Below, piece by piece: positions 33,522 through 59,917 of a stretch of DNA of 64,000 nt. Position 1 is the first letter of the stretch; the number at the start of each line of letters is the position of its first letter. The notes under the pieces were generated by a model, which did not search any database, had not been told where the DNA came from, and saw nothing but the letters and a program-made list of their open reading frames with translations. Source of the DNA: Mobula hypostoma (lineage: Eukaryota); NCBI RefSeq assembly GCF_963921235.1, contig NC_086097.1, forward strand, positions 24,554,001-24,618,000, read 5' to 3'. The translations under genes were made by a program, and so were the position numbers.

Positions 33522-34803
33522 AACCATATAACCATATAACAATTACAGCACGGAAACAGGCCATCTCGGCCCTTCTAGTCCGTGCTGAACTCTTACTCTC
33601 ACCTAGTCCCACCGACCTGCACTCAGCCCATAACCCTCCATGCCTTTCCTGTCCATATAGCTGTCCAATTTAACTTTAAACAACAACATCGAACCTGCCT
33701 CAACCACTTCTGCTGGAAGCTCGTTCCACACAGCCACCACTCTCTGAGTAAAGAAGTTCCCCCTCATGTTACCCCTAAACTTTTGCCCTTTAACTCTCAA
33801 CTCTTGTCTTCTTGTTTGAATCTCACCCACTCTCAATGGAAAAAGCCTATCCACGTCAACTCTATCTATCCCCCTCATAATTTTAAATACCTCTATCAAG
33901 TCCCCCCTCAACCTTCTACGTTCCAAAGAATAAGACCCAACTTGTTCAACCTTTCTCTGTAACTTAGGTGATGAAATCCAGGTAACATTCTAGTAAATCT
34001 TCTCTGTACTCTCTCTATTTTGTTGACACCTTTCCTATAATTCGGTGACCAAAACTGTACACAATACTCCAAATTTGGCTTCACCAATGCCTTGTACAAT
34101 TTCAACATGACATACCAACTGCTATACTCAATGCTCTGATTTGTAAAGGCCAGCATACCAAAAGATTTCTTCACCACCCTATCCACATGAGATTTCACCT
34201 TCAGGGAACCAAGCACCATTATTCCTAGATCCCTCTGTTCTACAGCATTCTTCAATGCCCTACCATTTACCATGTATGTCCTATTTTGATTAGTCCTACC
34301 AAAATGTAGCACCTCAAATTTATCAGCATTAAACTCCATCTGCCATCTTTCAGCCCACTCTTCTAACTGGCCTAAATCTCTCTGCAAGCTTTGAAAACCT
34401 ACTTCATTATCCACAACTCCACCTATCTTAGTATCATCTGCATACTTACTAATCCAATTTACCACCCCATCATCCAGATCATTATTGTATATGACAAATA
34501 ACATTAGACCCAGTACAGATCCCTGAGGCACACCACTAGTCACCGGCCTCCAATGTAACAAACAGTTTATCCACCACCACTCTCTGGCATCTCCCATCCA
34601 ACCACCGCTGAATCCATTTTACTACTTCAATATTAATACCTAACGATTGAACCTTCCTAACCAACCTTCCGTGTGGGACCTTGTCAAAGGCCTTACTGAA
34701 GTCCATATAGACGACATCCACCGCTTTACCCTCGTCAACTTTCCTAGTAACCTCTTCAAAAAATTCAGTAAGATTTGTTAAACATGATCTTCCACGCACA
34801 AAT
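33522..34803 (-). mobile_element. CR1 LINE 3' part (RT and C-terminus, two frameshifts)
   Basis: ORFs 34536-34799, 33908-34597 and 33603-33926 give consecutive RT segments (YMDFSKAFDKVPH, GVPQGSVLG, KYADDTKI). (taaccata)n tail at ~33522. Confidence 0.95.
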
Positions 34804-34959: not shown

Positions 34960-35995
34960 AGATTCATTTCCAATACCAGATCAATTGATTACAGCCTCTC
35001 CTTTAGTTGACTTATCTACATATTGCGTCAGGAAATTTTCCTGAACACACCTAACAAACTCAACCCCATCCAAACCACTTGCGCTGAGGAGATGCCAGTC
35101 AATTTTAGGAAAATTAAAATCATCCATCACCACAACCCTATTATTATTGCACCATTCCAGAATCTGCCTCCCTATCTGCTCTTTGATCTCTCTATTACTA
35201 TTGCAGGGGGGTCTATAAAAACACCCAGTACAGTTATTACCCCCATCCTGTTTCTGACTACCACCCACACTGACTCAGTAGATAATACCTCCATAACTTC
35301 TTCCTTTTCTGCAGCCGTGACACCACCTTGATTAGCAATGCCACACCCCCACCTCTTCTGCCACCTCCCTGTGCTTTTTGAAACATCTAATTTCTGACAG
35401 ACTCAGCAGCCATTCCTGTCCCTAAGACATCCGAGTCTCTGTAATGGCCACAACATCATAGTTCCATGTATTGATCCACGCTCCAACTTCATTCGCTTCC
35501 TTGCATTAAAATACACATCTCAAATCATCTAGCTGAGTACATCTTTGCTCTATCATTTACCTATCCCTCCTCACAAACTCCCTGCAAGCTGTCTCGACTT
35601 GTATGCCAACTGCCCCATCCTCTGACTCTTCATTTTGGTTCCCACCCCCATTGCAAATCTAGTTTAAACCCTCCCCAACAGCATTAGTGAACCTCCCTTC
35701 CAGGATATTGGTTCCCCTCCAGTTCAAGTGCAACCTGTACAGGTCACCCCTTTCCCAGAAAATGTTCCAATGATCCCAGGACTTGAAACCCTGCCCCCTT
35801 CACCATCTGTCAGCCACTCATTAATCTGTGCTATCTTCCTGTTCCAACCTTCCCTACCTCATGGCACCGGGGGTAATCCGGAGATTACCACCTTGGAGGT
35901 CCTGCTATTCATCCTCCTTCTTATCTCCCTAAACTTACTACACAGGGCCTCTACCCCTATCCTGCCTCTGTCATTGGTACCAATATGTACCACGG
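34960..35995 (-). mobile_element. CR1 LINE internal fragment: ORF1 esterase end plus ORF2 AP-endonuclease
   Basis: VVHIGTND SGNH/esterase-like motif near 35990. FYRPP and VVVMDDFNFPKIDW...FLTQYV APE motifs in ORF 34981-35268. Confidence 0.85.
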
Positions 35996-37859
35996 CTAAG
36001 CTCAACCTAACCAATCTATCGTCACTGCTGTAAGAGATGGTCTGGGCAAGGAACTAACTAAGCCAAGCATACAGCTGCACTTGTGTCCCTACTGATTACA
36101 GCTGCAGTTTAATGTTATTTGCAGATTGCTGTAAAATATTTTCTTTAAAGTTCATTCCTGGCAAATAGGCAGCATGTAATGAAAGGCAACTGAGGTACCA
36201 GGGGATCAAGTGACGTCTAAAGCCATGAAGGGAAGAGGCAAACATTTATCACTGTCATTTGAACCAGTACGCGGGCTGTGTCCTTGAAGGCCAATCTATA
36301 TATACAGCACAGGTGCAGTTTCTGGTTTTATTCCCTGCAATGATGTTTAGTGGGTTAGAAGTTGGAGATAGTCATCGAGTCCTAGAGCCACACAGCAGAG
36401 AAACAGGACCTTAAACTCACCATTCTGACCCTCAAGTACTTATCTATACAAGTATCATAAATCATCATCAGATTTATGAATGGACAATGAACCCATGAAC
36501 ACTGCCTCAACACTCTGTTATTTTTATGCTCTCTTTTTGCACTACATATTAAATATTTAATTTAATTTATTTTGTATATAATGGCCAGCACTTGGTCCAT
36601 ACACATCTGTTCCTTGCATTTATTAAGTCGCATTGAGTTCCAGATATGGGAAGTTATGTTAAACACAAAAGATTCTGCAGATGCTGGAAATCCAGAGCAA
36701 CACACACAAAATGGAGGAGGAACTCCGCAGGTCGGGCAGCATCTATGGAAATGAATAAACAACACTTCAAGCCAAGACCCTTCCTCAGGACTGGAAAGGA
36801 AGGGGGAAGACACCAGAGTAAAAACTTGAGGGGAGGGGAAGGAGGGCTAGATAGAAGGTGATAGGTGAAGCCGGGTGGGGGGAAAAGGTAAAGGGCTGGT
36901 GAACAAGGAGTCTGATAGAAGAAGTGAGTGGACCATGGAAGAAAGGGAAGGAGGAAGGGTCCGGGGGAGGTGATAGGCAGGTGAGGAGAAGCGGTAAGAG
37001 ACCAGCGTGAGGAATAGAAGAGCTGGTTATGTTGCAGCTTTATAAAGCTGTACTTGAGCTGCCTCTGGAGTATTACATTGAATTGTGGACACCCCATCAT
37101 AGGAAGAATGGGGAATCTTTGGGAGAGTGCAGTTAAAGTTTACCTGGATTCAAGGGTGTGTTGGACAAACTTGGGTCGTTTTCTTTGAAGCAACAGAGGA
37201 TGCTGCCTGACCTGCTGAGTCCCTCCAGCATTGTGTGTGTGATGCTCCAGATCTCTATCATCTACAAAATCTCTCGTGTCTCCAGAGAAACACAGGTTAG
37301 TTTTAAGCTGAGGAGAAGATGGGAGATGGATAGATTTGACAATGGTGAGGCCAAGTTGCCATGGGGATAATTTGCAGAGATCACCTGGTTGATGAGTTAA
37401 TGGGATCAAATTGAGAATGAGAAGGCAGACAAAAGGAGTCTGAAAGTTGTGAAGTGCACGGTAAGTACAGGCTGTGCTAATGGAGGGAGACCTGCTGGGC
37501 CATTTCGAACATGCAGCATCTCCACCGTTTTGATTTTCAGTTTTTTACAGTGTGTGTGACTGAGAGACCGTGTGCAGTCACATGCAGTTTGTGTATATGT
37601 GTGTGTATATTCCCTTATGTTTATGATTAAAGATTAACAATTAACTTTGTCACATGTACATCGAAACATCTAAACAGACAGTGAAATGGGTCGTTTTGCA
37701 TCATCTGAGGATTGTACTGGGGACAGCACACAAGTTTTGTTATCCTTCTGCCACAGTCATAGCATGCCCATAACTTACTAGCCCTAACCAGTGCACTTTG
37801 AAATGTGAAAGGATCCCACAAAGCACGGGACTACCTGTGTGTGGTCTTGTGTCTGTGTG

Positions 37860-37901
<42 letters not shown>

Positions 37902-38932
37902 TGACACCCCTGACTACTCCTCCCGGTCTCTCAGTCAGCAGACTGTTGGTGTCTGAGCTGGCTGTGCTCCCCCTGCCGACGCAGAGCACGTGGGACGTCC
38001 CACTCCGGAGATTTGAGTTTAATATCTCAGCTGATATTCCGCAACTCCACTTTTGAATGCCAACTTTTATGCCAAATTGAATAGCACTTACCACCCTGTG
38101 TAAAACAAAACCTCTGATATCCCCCCAATACTTTCCTCTAATACCTTAAAATAATGCCTTTGCTTTTTATTTTTATATATTTAACAATACAGCACGGAGT
38201 TGCCCCTTCCAGCTCTTCAAGCCAATGCGCCCCAGCAACCCCACAACCCCGATTAGCCCTAACCGAATCATGAGACAATTTGTAATGACCAATTAACCTC
38301 CCCGATATGTCTTCGGACTGTGGGAGGAAACCAGAGCACCTGGGAAAAACCCATGCGTTCAATGCGGACGACCTACAGAGGCTCCTCACAGAACAGTGCC
38401 GGAATTGAACTCTGAACTCCAGAACACGCTGAGCTGTCATAGGAGAGCGTTAGCTGCGGCGCTACCGTGGTGTCCAATTGCCTTGTGTTAGACATTTCCG
38501 GCCGAGGAAGAAGTCTCTGGTTGTTCACTGAATCTCAGCCTTTTATCATCTTGTACACCTCTATCAGGTCACTGCAAGCGTCAGAAACCTGAAACTGGTA
38601 TTGGTACTGGTTTATTATTGTCACATGTTCCCAGATACAGTGAGAAGCTTGGATTGCATACTGTTTATACAGATCAAATCATTACACAGTGCATTCAGCT
38701 ACACCAAGTTAACACAATAACAATGCGGAATAAAGCGTAACAGCCACCAAAAAGTGGAGTGCAAGTATACAAAGATCATAATGAGGTGGATTAAGGAGGG
38801 CAAGTGTGAGGCAGGGAGTGGAAGATGATTATCATTTTGTGCCGTGTCATATGACATGGGTGATCATGGTCTATGACCATGATTGTTCTTGGCAAATTCT
38901 GCAGAAGTGGTTTCCCATTGCCTTCTTTACAA

Positions 38933-41809: not shown

Positions 41810-42870
41810 TAATCAACACGCTCCAAAACCTGGACCTCTGTAACTCCCTCTGCAACCGGATCCTTGACTTCCTCACTAGGAGACCACAAGTCTGTGCGGA
41901 TCAGAAATATCACCTCCTCCTCACTGACAATCAACAATGGTGCACTTCAAGGATGTGTGCTCAGCCTAACGCTCTCGTCTCTCTACACCCATGACTGGGA
42001 GGCTAGGCACAGTTCAAATGCCACCTATAAATTTTCCGATGACACAATTTCAGATGGTGACAAAGAGGCGTATAAGGGTGAGATAGATCAGCTGGTCAAG
42101 TGGTGTCATAACAACAACCTTGCACTCAACATCAGTAAGACCAAGGAAGTGATTATATATTTCAGGAAGGGGAAGCTGAGGGAACACACCAGTCCTCATC
42201 GAGAGATCAGTAGTAGAAAGGGTGAGCAGTTTCAAGTTCCTGGGTATCAACATCTCTGAAGATTTATCCTGGACCCAACATATTGATGCAATTACAAAGA
42301 AGGCATGACAGTGGCTGTATTTCATTAGGAGTCTGCGGAGATTTAGTATGTCACCAGGGACTCTAGCAAGTTTCTATAGATGTACCATAGAGAGCATTCT
42401 AACTGGTTATATCACCATCCGGCATGGAGGGGCCACTGCACGGGGTCAGTAAAAGCTGCAGAAAGTTGCAACCTCAACTAGCCCATCATGGGCACCAGCC
42501 TCCCCAGCATCGAGGTCACCTTCACAAGTCGATACCTCAAAAAGGTGACATCCATCATTGAGCACTCCCATTACCCAGGATGTGCCCCCTCCTCATTGCT
42601 ACAATCAAGGAGGAAATACAAGAACATAACGACACACACTCAACATTTTAGGAACAGCTTCTTCCCCACTGCCATCAGACTTCTGAATGGTCCATGAATT
42701 CATGTACACTACCTCACTTTTTTTCTGTTTTGCTCACTTTTTGCACGTTATTTAACTTTTAACCTCTTTATTTCTTATTGTAGTTTATATACAATATTTT
42801 ATTACATACTACACTGTACTGCTGTCCCAGAACAGCAAATTTCAAGCTAGTGATATTAAACCTGATTCTG
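41810..42870 (+). mobile_element. Rex1/Babar-type LINE 3' fragment (decayed RT)
   Basis: LCNRILDFLT, GALQGCVLSL.L.SLYTHD, KFSDDT, WCHNNNLALNISKTKE and RNSFFPTAIRLLN motifs, with a (tgattc) tail. Related minus-strand fragments at ~11560-11810, 14600-14955, 18040-18430, 26530-26850, 49730-50070 and 60520-61020. Confidence 0.85.
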
Positions 42871-46500: not shown

Positions 46501-47279
46501 GGTGATAGAAAATATTCAAAATGAACAAGGCGGGCGGGTGAGGGGGATGAAGTAAGAAGCTGGGAGATGATTGGTGGAAGACTCAAAGGGCTGAAGAAGA
46601 AAGAATCTAATAGGAGAGGGCAGTGGACCATGGAAGAAAGAGGAGAGAGGAGGGGAAGCAAAAGGAGATGATGGGCAAATGGGGAGAAGAGGATAACCAG
46701 AATGCAAAATGGAAAAAGATAGAAGAAGGGAGGAAAGAGATATTATTGGAAGTTAGAACAAAGTGAAAAAACGGTACAGGCCTTCAGCCCACAATGTTAT
46801 GCTGACCTTTTAACCTAATCTAAGATTAATCTAATCCTTCCCTCCCACATAGCCCTCTATTTTTCCTTCATCCATGTCTCCATCTAAGAGTCTGTTACAC
46901 GTCTCTAATGTATTTGCCTAATGAACATTAAAATAGCTGGAGGGACTGATCAGCCAAAGCCCAGCCACATACTTAAGGATGAGATCTTGTCCTCTGCAAC
47001 AAACGGATAGGCTGAGTAACCAGGATGTGATCAAAAGTTTCGAAGCTTTCAGTTCTCCTTCCCATTTACAGTAGAATCTGTTCGAGGATCACCACCAGGT
47101 CACAGGGTCTAAGGAAAATGACAGTGTCAATTTAATGCCATTACAAATCGATATTTTGTAAAATATGCAGAACTATTTAAAAGTGTGTTAACTTGATGCA
47201 GTGATATTACGCATTATAAATCTCAAAAAGCCCTTAAAAACCTGATGTTGACTGGCTTTTATTGATTTCACAACAAACA

Positions 47280-48150
47280 AATTGTAATTAAAATGTAAGA
47301 TGTTCACAACTAACCCTTGACCTTCCAGATTCTTTTCTTTTAAGCTTTCTCTTTAAACTTTAAAGGAAACATTGATAATGAACGCCTGGCGATTGCTAAA
47401 ACGAAAGTCCCCAAAAAATTCAGAGGAATAGTATTTGATGAGTGGCTACAAGAGAAAGGTAATCTCCATTAAAAACTTTAACATTAACACTTTCAATTAT
47501 GTTATATATATTTTTAATAAAGAAAAATCTAAAGCTTGCATTAAAGTCTTGATTGTAAAACAAGTAACTTAAAAATAATCTTTGCTATTGAACAAGCGTC
47601 TTGACTTAATGTAATTTATAACTTGCTTCTGGTAACAACATTTTATATTGATAAATATCTTTATAATTCATCATCATTAAACTGTAGTTAAAGGGACTGT
47701 CAGATTTTTGGCTTTTGTTAAATTATTGCATGAAATTCTAAAAAGGTGAATTATAACATGCATTATACATGATAATTCGTTGGGTGCTGGTAAATTTGCA
47801 GAAAATAAGCTTGTTTCTAAAGTGGATTCTTTACATCCAATTGAAGAACTTAATATTTTATAAGAAACTTCAAAATTAATCTAAATGGAGTGCTTTTTTA
47901 ATATCTATCACCTTTTACCCAAGATCCTAATCATTAAAGTCCCTTTAACGCTGATTGTAAAAGTTAATATGACTCAGGCTTAATATTCAAATTGATGCAT
48001 GCACGGTTATTATATTTACTTTCAACTTCTCTGATGCTTGCTAACCTCTTAGTGTTTGCTTTTAAACTTTTGCCTTGAAATTATGATGTGGAATAAAGTA
48101 AAATTTACATTTGAGTTCAATGACTGCCTTAAAAGTCTTCAAAGGAAACA
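47280..48150 (+). promoter_or_regulatory. Repeat-free AT-rich splicing-regulatory region around the SS4 exon
   Basis: Branch-point/QKI-like ACTAAC at 47309-47314. Dense TTAA/TAAA (UWAA) cluster at 47461-47580, just after the donor. RBFOX motif TGCATG at 47727-47732 and 47996-48001. No recognisable TE, although the surrounding intron is saturated with them. Confidence 0.7.
47366..47458 (+). CDS. Neurexin alternatively spliced site 4 (SS4/AS4) cassette exon, 93 nt
   Basis: Flanked by ...ctttaaactttaaag| and |gtaatc. Phase 1-1 exon translating (G)[30 protein letters not shown](G), alignable to neurexin SS4 inserts (NRXN1 [30 protein letters not shown]; NRXN3 [30 protein letters not shown]). Absent from the ORF track because it is short. 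Paralogue not assignable, so no symbol. Confidence 0.93.
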
Positions 48151-54891: not shown

Positions 54892-55205
54892 GCCGCATGC
54901 TCACCATCTTCAACACCCAGGCCCTGATCACCATCGGGGGGAAGAACAGGAGCCGGCCGTTCCAAGGACAGATGTCTGGTCTTTACTACAACGGCTTGAA
55001 AGTTCTCAACATGGCAGCAGAGAGCCACCCCAATGTCAAGGTCAACGGGACGGTGCGGCTGGTGGGAGACGTATCCTCGGTGATTGTCAACCGGCCGTCA
55101 GTGACCACCTTGCCAGCCGAAATGTCCACCACCATTATGGCGACCACCACTACCATGGCAACCACCACGGCCAGGAAGGTCCGGGGAACAATGAAGGTCA
55201 ACCCG
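54892..55205 (+). CDS. Neurexin constitutive exon: LNS6 (laminin G) C-terminus plus O-glycosylated Thr-rich stalk
   Basis: Acceptor cctctttcctttggcag|, donor CCG|gtaatt. 314 nt, phase 1 start compatible with the SS4 exon, phase 0 end. Translates [60 protein letters not shown]...[29 protein letters not shown], unmistakably neurexin (GRQLTIFN..FQGQ.SGLYY.GLKVL) and closest by eye to NRXN3. Confidence 0.97.
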
Positions 55206-58371: not shown

Positions 58372-59062
58372 TAAGACCATAAGACCATAAGACAAAGGAG
58401 CAGAAGTCGGCCATTTGGCCCATCGAGTCTGCTCCGCCATTTTATCATGAGCTGATCCATTCTCCCATTTAGTCCCACTTCCCAGCCTTCTCACCATAAC
58501 CTTTGATGCCCTGGCTACACAGATACCTATCAATCTCTGCCTTAAATACACCCAATGACTTGGCCTCCACTGCCGCCTGTGGCAACAAATTCCATAGATT
58601 CACCACCCTCAGGCTAAAAAAATTTCTTCGCATCTCGGTTCTGAATGGGCGCCCTTCAATCCTTAAGTCATGCCCTCTCGTACTAGACTCCCCCATCATG
58701 GGAAACAACTTTGCCACATCCACTCTGTCTATGCTTTTCAACATTCGAAATGTTTCTATGAGGTCTCCCCTCATTCTTCTAAACTCCAAGGAATACAGTC
58801 CAAGAGCGGACAAACGTTCCTCATATGTTAACCCTCTCATTCCCGGAATCATTCTAGTGAATCTCCTCTGTACCATCTCCAACGTCAGCACATCCTTTCT
58901 TAAATAAGGAGACCAAAACTGCCCACAGTACTCCAGGTGAGGTCTCACCAGTGCCTTATAGAGCCGCAACATCACATCCCTGCTGCTATACTCTATTCCT
59001 CTAGAAATGAATGCCAACATTGCATTTGCCTTCTTCACCACTGACTCAACCTGGAGGCTAAC
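58372..59062 (-). mobile_element. Young 5'-truncated CR1 LINE
   Basis: Uninterrupted CR1 ORF2 C-terminus (KKANAMLAFI...LVRPHLEYC.QFWSP...RVVNLWN) and (taagacca)n tail. A ~68-bp 3' tip of the same subfamily lies at ~50691-50758. Confidence 0.95.
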
Positions 59063-59917
59063 GTTCAGAGAGAAAAAAAAACAAATCATGCAGACAATAA
59101 AACCAAACAAGCAACACTCAGAACAAAAGTGAGTCCTCGGACACAAAGCCCAGAGCAAGTCCACAGCCTCAGCCTCCATGCAGTGGAGCGCGAAGCAAAC
59201 GTTGCGGATCTGCTGGATCTCTTATGGGGGAGAAAAATCTTATTCATTTTCGTTAAGAGAATCTTATATGAAATTAAAATGGAGAGCGATGCAGAATCTC
59301 TAGTGTTTACAACCTCGCTCTTGTTCTAATTTGCACTGCCTTCACGCTTCCAACTAAAGGCTAGGTTCAGGAGAACTGCTAATTTCCCTGATTTGAAACC
59401 ATTGTCGAGCAGCCTCTAACCCCTGTTGGATTACTGACAGCTTGTCAACAGCATTGAATGTTGTTAAACTAATAACCCTGCTTCTGCTGCCTGGAATTAA
59501 CTATTACTCTCCCAAGAGAAGGAAAAGCTCAGGGGAGACCTAACTGAAGTCTTAGGCTACAAGTGGCACTGATAGAGGAAGTTGTTGGTGAGCTAGTAAT
59601 ACGAGGATACTGGTTAGTGTAATTAGGTAAAGAAGTAGGAGGGAGGTGAGGGGAATTTTCTTTTTTTTTAATTCAGCAAGTATCCACAATCTGGGATGCA
59701 CTCTCCAATTCCATAATGAATCAAGTTCAGGAAAAGGAATTTGAAGGGGAAAGGGCTGAGGAAAGACCAGCAAACAGTGAATGGTGAAATCAGTCATAGC
59801 ATCACAGAATAATACAGCACAGAAACAGGCCCTTCAGCCCATCTCATCCATGCCAACCAAGGTACCCATCTAAACTGGTCCTATTTAGCTGCATTTGGCC
59901 AATATACTCCTCTAAAC

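Follow-up and report, generated by a model that had tools for sequence, protein, structure and literature searches.

A 31-residue SS4 insert in the neurexin-3 gene of a batoid ray and its occurrence across sharks and rays

SS4 is the best-studied splice switch of the neurexins and is routinely called a highly conserved exon of 90 bp, or 30 residues; a length of 90 nt and 30 aa is stated in both PMC10363586 and PMC6160412. As reported in PMC6160412, Cbln1 binds only neurexin that carries the S4 insert, and the same insert lowers the affinity for LRRTM2 more than 20-fold and that for neuroligin about 4-fold. That source also describes the insert as conformationally plastic: it is helical in structure 2R1B, forms a beta-strand in 3MW2, and is disordered by NMR. 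With regard to splicing, UWAA-rich elements located immediately downstream of AS4 mediate the repression by T-STAR/SLM2, according to PMC3636136, where the UWAA repeats at AS4 are reported to be conserved in bony vertebrates and human T-STAR is reported to repress the zebrafish Nrxn3 AS4 exon. The arrangement of UWAA is described there as less conserved downstream of Nrxn3 AS4 than downstream of the Nrxn1/2 counterparts. The lamprey AS4 exon is flanked by UWAA repeats as well (PMC3933685).

The stretch of DNA analyzed here (the window) is 64 kb long and corresponds to G000:C1:24554001-24618000 of a ray genome, in which the flanking exon and the paralogs were also sought. On the forward strand, the window contains a 93-nt exon of phase 1-1 at 47366-47458, preceded by AG at 47364-65 and followed by GT at 47459-60. 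The borders read ...ctttaaag/GAAACATTG...CAAGAGAAAG/gtaatc, with the 3' end of the exon being GAGAAAG/gtaatc (slashes mark the borders). The frame is open throughout, and the 31-aa product consists of an initial G followed by 30 aa translated wholly within the exon; the intron splits the first G codon of the insert, such that G comes from the upstream exon and GA from the SS4 exon. The LNS6 exon that precedes the SS4 exon is located 53.2 kb upstream in the same genome (L009); it terminates in phase 1, with ...TAT CCT TCA G/gtgagt at its donor site. The next constitutive exon, encoding the C-terminal half of LNS6 and the start of the stalk, is located at 54892-55205 (+), opens with ag/GC CGC ATG, starts in phase 1 and ends in phase 0; it is the only other neurexin exon within the 64-kb window. 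The SS4 exon thus sits between two exons that code for the halves of the last LNS domain, and its inclusion adds 31 residues to LNS6. Because the phases of the flanking exons match that of the phase 1-1 SS4 exon, both inclusion and skipping preserve the frame. The borders, the open frame and both flanking exons confirm the description of this locus in an earlier note on the same DNA, as a 93-nt phase 1-1 exon coding for 31 aa. A nearby splice site that would restore 90 nt was sought and ruled out: the first 12 nt of the exon contain no AG and the last 12 nt contain no GT.

Several other observations were made in the window and on the paralogous contigs. The introns hold decayed pieces of retroelements at 33908-34618 (-), 34981-35274 (-) and 41813-42259 (+); the Pfam matches comprise two RVT_1 fragments (E 7e-11 and 1.7e-6, the latter just below the cut-off) and one endonuclease fragment (E 7e-6, also just below the cut-off). 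A dinucleotide repeat of the CA/TG type at about 37780-37930 reads HTHTHT... in the frame listing, and the 250-aa frame located at 58469-59221 (-) matched nothing in Pfam. In the C82 paralog, the exon preceding SS4 (G000:C82:342181-342360, L008) has one in-frame TGA within its matched stretch, which could represent the edge of an intron, an error or a genuine defect.

The identity of the exon as SS4 is supported by its sequence and splice sites, by matches to SS4-containing structures, and by identical annotated proteins. The 30-aa translation of the exon had only three matches in the PDB, 3mw3, 3mw2 and 2r1b, with E values from 6e-4 to 1e-3; all three are neurexin chains that contain SS4, and each alignment coincides exactly with the insert, the PDB side having a gap of one residue. 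Judged by this coincidence of chains and position, the match is not due to chance. The product of 54892-55205 matches neurexin LNS6 chains in the PDB (E 6e-25). The SS4 peptide of the window is identical to that of annotated SS4+ proteins named neurexin 3a, and has 14-18 residues identical to the 30-aa inserts of lamprey, teleosts, turtles and the NRXN1/2 type.

The product of the downstream exon is 100% identical to neurexin 3a models. Among the best 120 of 6986 matches in the protein search with this exon, 70 are elasmobranch models named "neurexin 3/3a", at 90-100% identity and with two myliobatiform rays at 100%, and the other 50 are 49 reptile proteins (neurexin 3 or unnamed laminin-G proteins) and one unnamed sturgeon protein. 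In the ray genome itself, an NRXN1-type query matched the exon on C1 at 59%, compared with 74% on C22 and 68% on C82, and the end of the insert, EWLQEK, is of the NRXN3 type rather than the EWLLDK of the NRXN1/2 type. On these sequence comparisons, with the NRXN3 assignment relying on source annotation names and best matches, the exon belongs to the neurexin-3 gene of a batoid ray. Taken as a whole, our analysis indicates that 47366-47458 is very probably the NRXN3 SS4/AS4 cassette exon of the ray, in a 31-aa form fixed in elasmobranchs, and predicted to be repressed by KHDRBS proteins and to operate as the usual ligand switch, with the extra residue probably lying in a linker.

To characterize the spread of the 31-aa form, we classified SS4 in a set of 361 proteins, of which 92 did not have the downstream motif and 46, being fragmentary or irregular models, were left unclassified. 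Among the 135 elasmobranch neurexin-3 proteins, all of which are gene models from genome annotation, with no transcript-derived members listed in the protein clusters, the 31-aa insert is included in 96 and skipped in 39, and no other arrangement occurs; both the included and the skipped form are present among the computational gene models of the same species. The 31-aa inserts fall into four sequence variants, set apart by V/I or A/V exchanges alone and never by more than 2 conservative changes, and represent 15 species: seven batoids (Hemitrygon, two Mobula, Pristis, Narcine, Amblyraja and Leucoraja) and eight sharks (Mustelus, two Chiloscyllium, Cetorhinus, two Scyliorhinus, Heterodontus and Hemiscyllium). 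Two of the models with the 31-aa form, P0036 and P0295, come from non-RefSeq annotation. The complete inserts from outside elasmobranchs have 30 aa in 43 cases, covering the NRXN1 type, the NRXN2 type, turtle NRXN3, teleost nrxn3a and nrxn3b, and lamprey, and 29 aa in 4 cases, all of them gecko-type NRXN3; none has 31 aa. Searches restricted to the insert region returned elasmobranch proteins only (8 and 31), within the reach of an index that requires several exact 5-mers and is silent on distant forms and on holocephalans. As a control from the same genome, the two other neurexin genes, on contigs C22 and C82, have SS4 exons of 90 nt, encoding 30 aa each. Given that 96 of the 135 elasmobranch models have 31 aa and none has another length, and that the paralogous exons of the same genome have 90 nt, the extra codon is specific to NRXN3. 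By the evidence of these models from 15 species, the length of 31 residues is a state of NRXN3 that is fixed across elasmobranchs.

The same observations bear on the possibility that the true exon has 90 nt, or that the extra codon is an error of assembly or annotation. We found nothing positive in favor of such an artifact, which is hardly credible: neither border has another AG or GT within 12 nt, independent assemblies of 15 species and the two non-RefSeq models all show the 31-aa form, and 93 nt is in frame with the flanking exons of the same genome.

The earlier note was correct that the insert is one residue longer than its relatives, having 31 aa against 30 in the NRXN1/2 chains of the PDB, in 43 non-elasmobranch proteins and in the two paralogs of the same genome. 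The novelty of the insert could not be upheld, because the 31-aa form is already the standard annotated SS4+ form of a known paralog, neurexin 3/3a, in 15 shark and ray species, the very outcome that the note had set against its own claim. As for the canonical length of 90 nt and 30 aa that it assumed, this length is typical outside elasmobranchs but not invariant, the gecko NRXN3 models having 29 aa. The ray exon, at 93 nt and 31 aa, likewise departs from the stated length. Our literature search found no paper describing SS4 of neurexins in cartilaginous fishes and, within the literature searched, the length difference appears to be undescribed in print. The 31-aa sequence itself is already in public annotation, and is a modest quirk of the lineage.

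Variation around SS4 was also seen in reptiles. The gecko-type NRXN3 models P0104 and P0166 have an SS4 insert of only 29 aa, so that the length varies in squamates too. In turtle NRXN3 (P0096, P0114, P0115, P0118-P0120), an extra 20-aa segment, DDATPHHHLTSRPVTTTTKI, occurs between the SS4 insert and the next exon; this segment of some turtle NRXN3 isoforms is absent from every elasmobranch model.

The insert combines features of different neurexin types. Its residues 1-11 are in the NRXN1/2 state, except for residue 3, and are close to those of lamprey, and the first 36 exon nt match the paralogs in the same genome at 28-32 positions. The start was altered to ERFQMV or ERYQMA in bony-vertebrate NRXN3, whereas elasmobranch NRXN3 keeps ERLAIA. 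The end, EWLQEK, is common to all NRXN3 orthologs, in contrast to EWLLDK of NRXN1/2. Alignments of the inserts thus bear out the view that an NRXN1/2-like start is joined here to an NRXN3-like end. As judged from these alignments, the mosaic look is that of a retained ancestral start together with an NRXN3-derived end. Recombination between paralogs was considered as the source of the mosaic and rejected, given that the start is ancestral, being found in lamprey and in all three paralogs of the ray genome, and that the end is common to NRXN3 orthologs.

The middle of the insert is remodeled and has one extra codon after the conserved Pro, with KKFR where other forms have YRL or FKY. The extra residue is placed after KKF by HMMER, by MAFFT (proteins) and by pairwise alignment to NRXN1/2. 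The MAFFT nucleotide alignment with the paralogs instead opens the 3-nt gap within GTA TTT, 4 codons downstream of that point, and pairwise alignment to turtle NRXN3 puts it before DEW. The exact position of the indel is therefore ambiguous across alignments, and also in comparison with bony-vertebrate NRXN3. Under the best alignment, the conserved Arg of all 30-aa forms (in G-R-V-V or N-R-P-V) is Ile in the elasmobranch insert. The basic residues K12, K14 and K18 are kept at positions where NRXN3 has K and NRXN1/2 have R, and the net charge of the insert, counted by hand from the aligned sequences, is +2 as compared with +1. The contention of the earlier note that a Lys-rich middle matches neither type therefore holds only in part: the middle is remodeled, but K12, K14 and K18 coincide with K positions of NRXN3, and the net charge is +2 versus +1. 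At the nucleotide level, positions 37-93 of the exon are identical to the paralogs of the same genome at 31-35 of 57 sites, whereas those two are identical to each other at 48 of 54.

To place the insert in a structural context, we used an AlphaFold2 model of the shark NRXN3-beta protein P0035, the insert of which differs from that of the window by one V/I substitution, built with a 72-sequence alignment. The LNS core is predicted with confidence, with pLDDT of 80-96 in 10-residue blocks over residues 81-190. The insert itself is of low confidence (pLDDT 49-58) and is modeled as two helices, at residues 196-207 and 216-224, connected by a linker at 208-215 that holds the KKFRG segment; the candidate indel residue, R213, is non-helical. 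The model hints that the one extra residue could be absorbed in this flexible part. We assume that the insert is functionally equivalent to those of 30 aa. Under this assumption, the 31-aa insert would act as the usual switch, permitting cerebellin binding and weakening the binding of LRRTM and neuroligin, and the extra residue would probably reside in the flexible linker, leaving the logic of the switch unchanged.

An alternative is that the insert specifies a distinct ligand code, in which the more basic, remodeled middle, KKFRGIVF, together with the extra residue would alter the selectivity for partners; this could take the form of a different preference among cerebellin subtypes or of a lineage-specific ligand. 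If this were so, the middle would retune the engagement of NRXN3 with cerebellin/GluD, neuroligin or other partners, and the SS4 switch would have been re-specified at least once in the evolution of vertebrates. In favor of this alternative, the middle is unique to elasmobranchs and nearly invariant in 96 models from 15 species; such near-invariance, apart from V/I exchanges, speaks against the assumed equivalence of function, as it could equally reflect lineage-specific constraint. The replacement of the conserved Arg after Gly/Asn by Ile, with an Arg one position before Gly, and the divergence of nt 37-93 of the exon (31-35 of 57 identical to the paralogs, as against 48 of 54 between the latter) are likewise compatible with altered selectivity, and the review PMC10363586 describes roles of mammalian Nrxn3 SS4+ that are distinct from those of Nrxn1 SS4+. 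Against this alternative, the anchors of the insert are all kept, namely GN.D.ER, the basic residues 12 and 14, Pro16, the basic residue 18 and V..EWL..K. The shift in net charge amounts to only one unit, and an insert that is flexible, as reported in PMC6160412, and of low confidence in AlphaFold2 would easily absorb an extra residue. Furthermore, the number of positions that separate bony-vertebrate NRXN3 from NRXN1 is about as large, and bony-vertebrate NRXN3 still binds the same classes of ligand. On balance, we consider a distinct ligand code unlikely.

With respect to the control of splicing, the intron stretch that includes the 3' splice site (47306-47365, +) is conserved with both paralogs of the same genome, being identical to each at 44 of 60 nt, against 14-19 of 40 in the adjoining 40 nt upstream of 47306. 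The block at 47306-47401 is conserved among all three paralogs (L011 on C22 and L012 on C82), with 44-50 of about 60 intron nt and 28-32 of 36 exon nt identical, compared with 14-20 of 40 nt beyond it on the upstream side; this conservation points to an element for splicing control at the 3' splice site that is ancient and common to the paralogs.

Both introns are rich in UWAA next to the exon. The upstream intron (47116-47365, +) contains 15 UWAA in 250 nt, a count reached by 0.4% of the 250-nt segments, against a background in the whole window of 3.0 on average (SD 2.5) per 250 nt. In the downstream intron, 47459-47718 (+) is, by its UWAA density, a candidate response element for KHDRBS proteins (SLM2/T-STAR, Sam68). 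There are 18 UWAA in 47459-47708, where mononucleotide composition predicts 10.6, and the maximum of the 64-kb window, 19 per 250 nt, is found at 47469-47718, starting 11 nt past the exon. The excess is partly plain AT-richness (18 observed vs 10.6 expected). Both paralogous SS4 exons have 21 UWAA each downstream. Because the cluster matches the element of PMC3636136 in motif and position, we infer from motif density that the exon is under control of the KHDRBS type. As in mammals and zebrafish, KHDRBS/STAR proteins (SLM2/T-STAR, Sam68) would bind the downstream UWAA cluster and repress inclusion in a cell-type-specific manner.

The predominance of models that include the exon (96/135) might be taken to indicate that it is no longer a regulated switch in elasmobranchs and is either constitutive or included as splicing noise. 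This is very improbable, considering that 39/135 models skip the exon, in the same species in which it is included, that the exon still has both its UWAA cluster and the conserved region at the 3' splice site, just as the regulated paralogous exons do, and that the peptide is under strong purifying selection.

The exon described here extends the UWAA-flanked AS4 architecture to cartilaginous fishes. The 31-aa elasmobranch and 29-aa gecko forms show that the SS4 length of NRXN3 is not invariant, with the NRXN1/2 exons of the same ray genome being canonical. The current understanding of neurexins is unchanged by the 31-aa form, which is a naturally occurring variant with which to probe what parts of the insert are important to the recognition of cerebellin, LRRTM and neuroligin.

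Compared with the described systems, the ray exon is the same as SS4 of mammalian NRXN1 and NRXN2 (2R1B, 3MW2, 3MW3) in its position within LNS6 and in its phase. The insert is identical to the N1-type and to both the a and b N2-type inserts at 17-18 of 30 residues, sharing with NRXN1/2 the start G N. D N E R L A I A, except for residue 3, as well as D E W L and the final K, and the downstream intron is UWAA-rich in both. It differs from NRXN1/2 in having 31 rather than 30 aa, K.K rather than R.R at 12 and 14, KKFRGIVF rather than YRL-GRVV, and an end of WLQEK rather than WLLDK. The SS4 exons on C22 and C82 of the same genome have the same AG/GT borders, the same phase and a UWAA-dense downstream intron, but are 90 nt long and encode 30 aa, and the NRXN3 exon has diverged from them over its last 57 nt.

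Bony-vertebrate NRXN3, represented by turtle NRXN3 and teleost nrxn3a and nrxn3b, is the orthologous gene and has in common with the ray the K.K at 12 and 14, K18 and EWLQEK, with 15-17 of 30 residues identical. The ray insert is one residue longer and has ERLAIA in place of ERFQMV/ERYQMA and KKFRGIVF in place of FKYNRPV. Gecko NRXN3 (P0104, P0166), known here from gene models only, also departs from 30 aa with the frame kept; unlike that of the ray, its insert is shorter, at 29 aa, and the indel lies in the N-terminal part.
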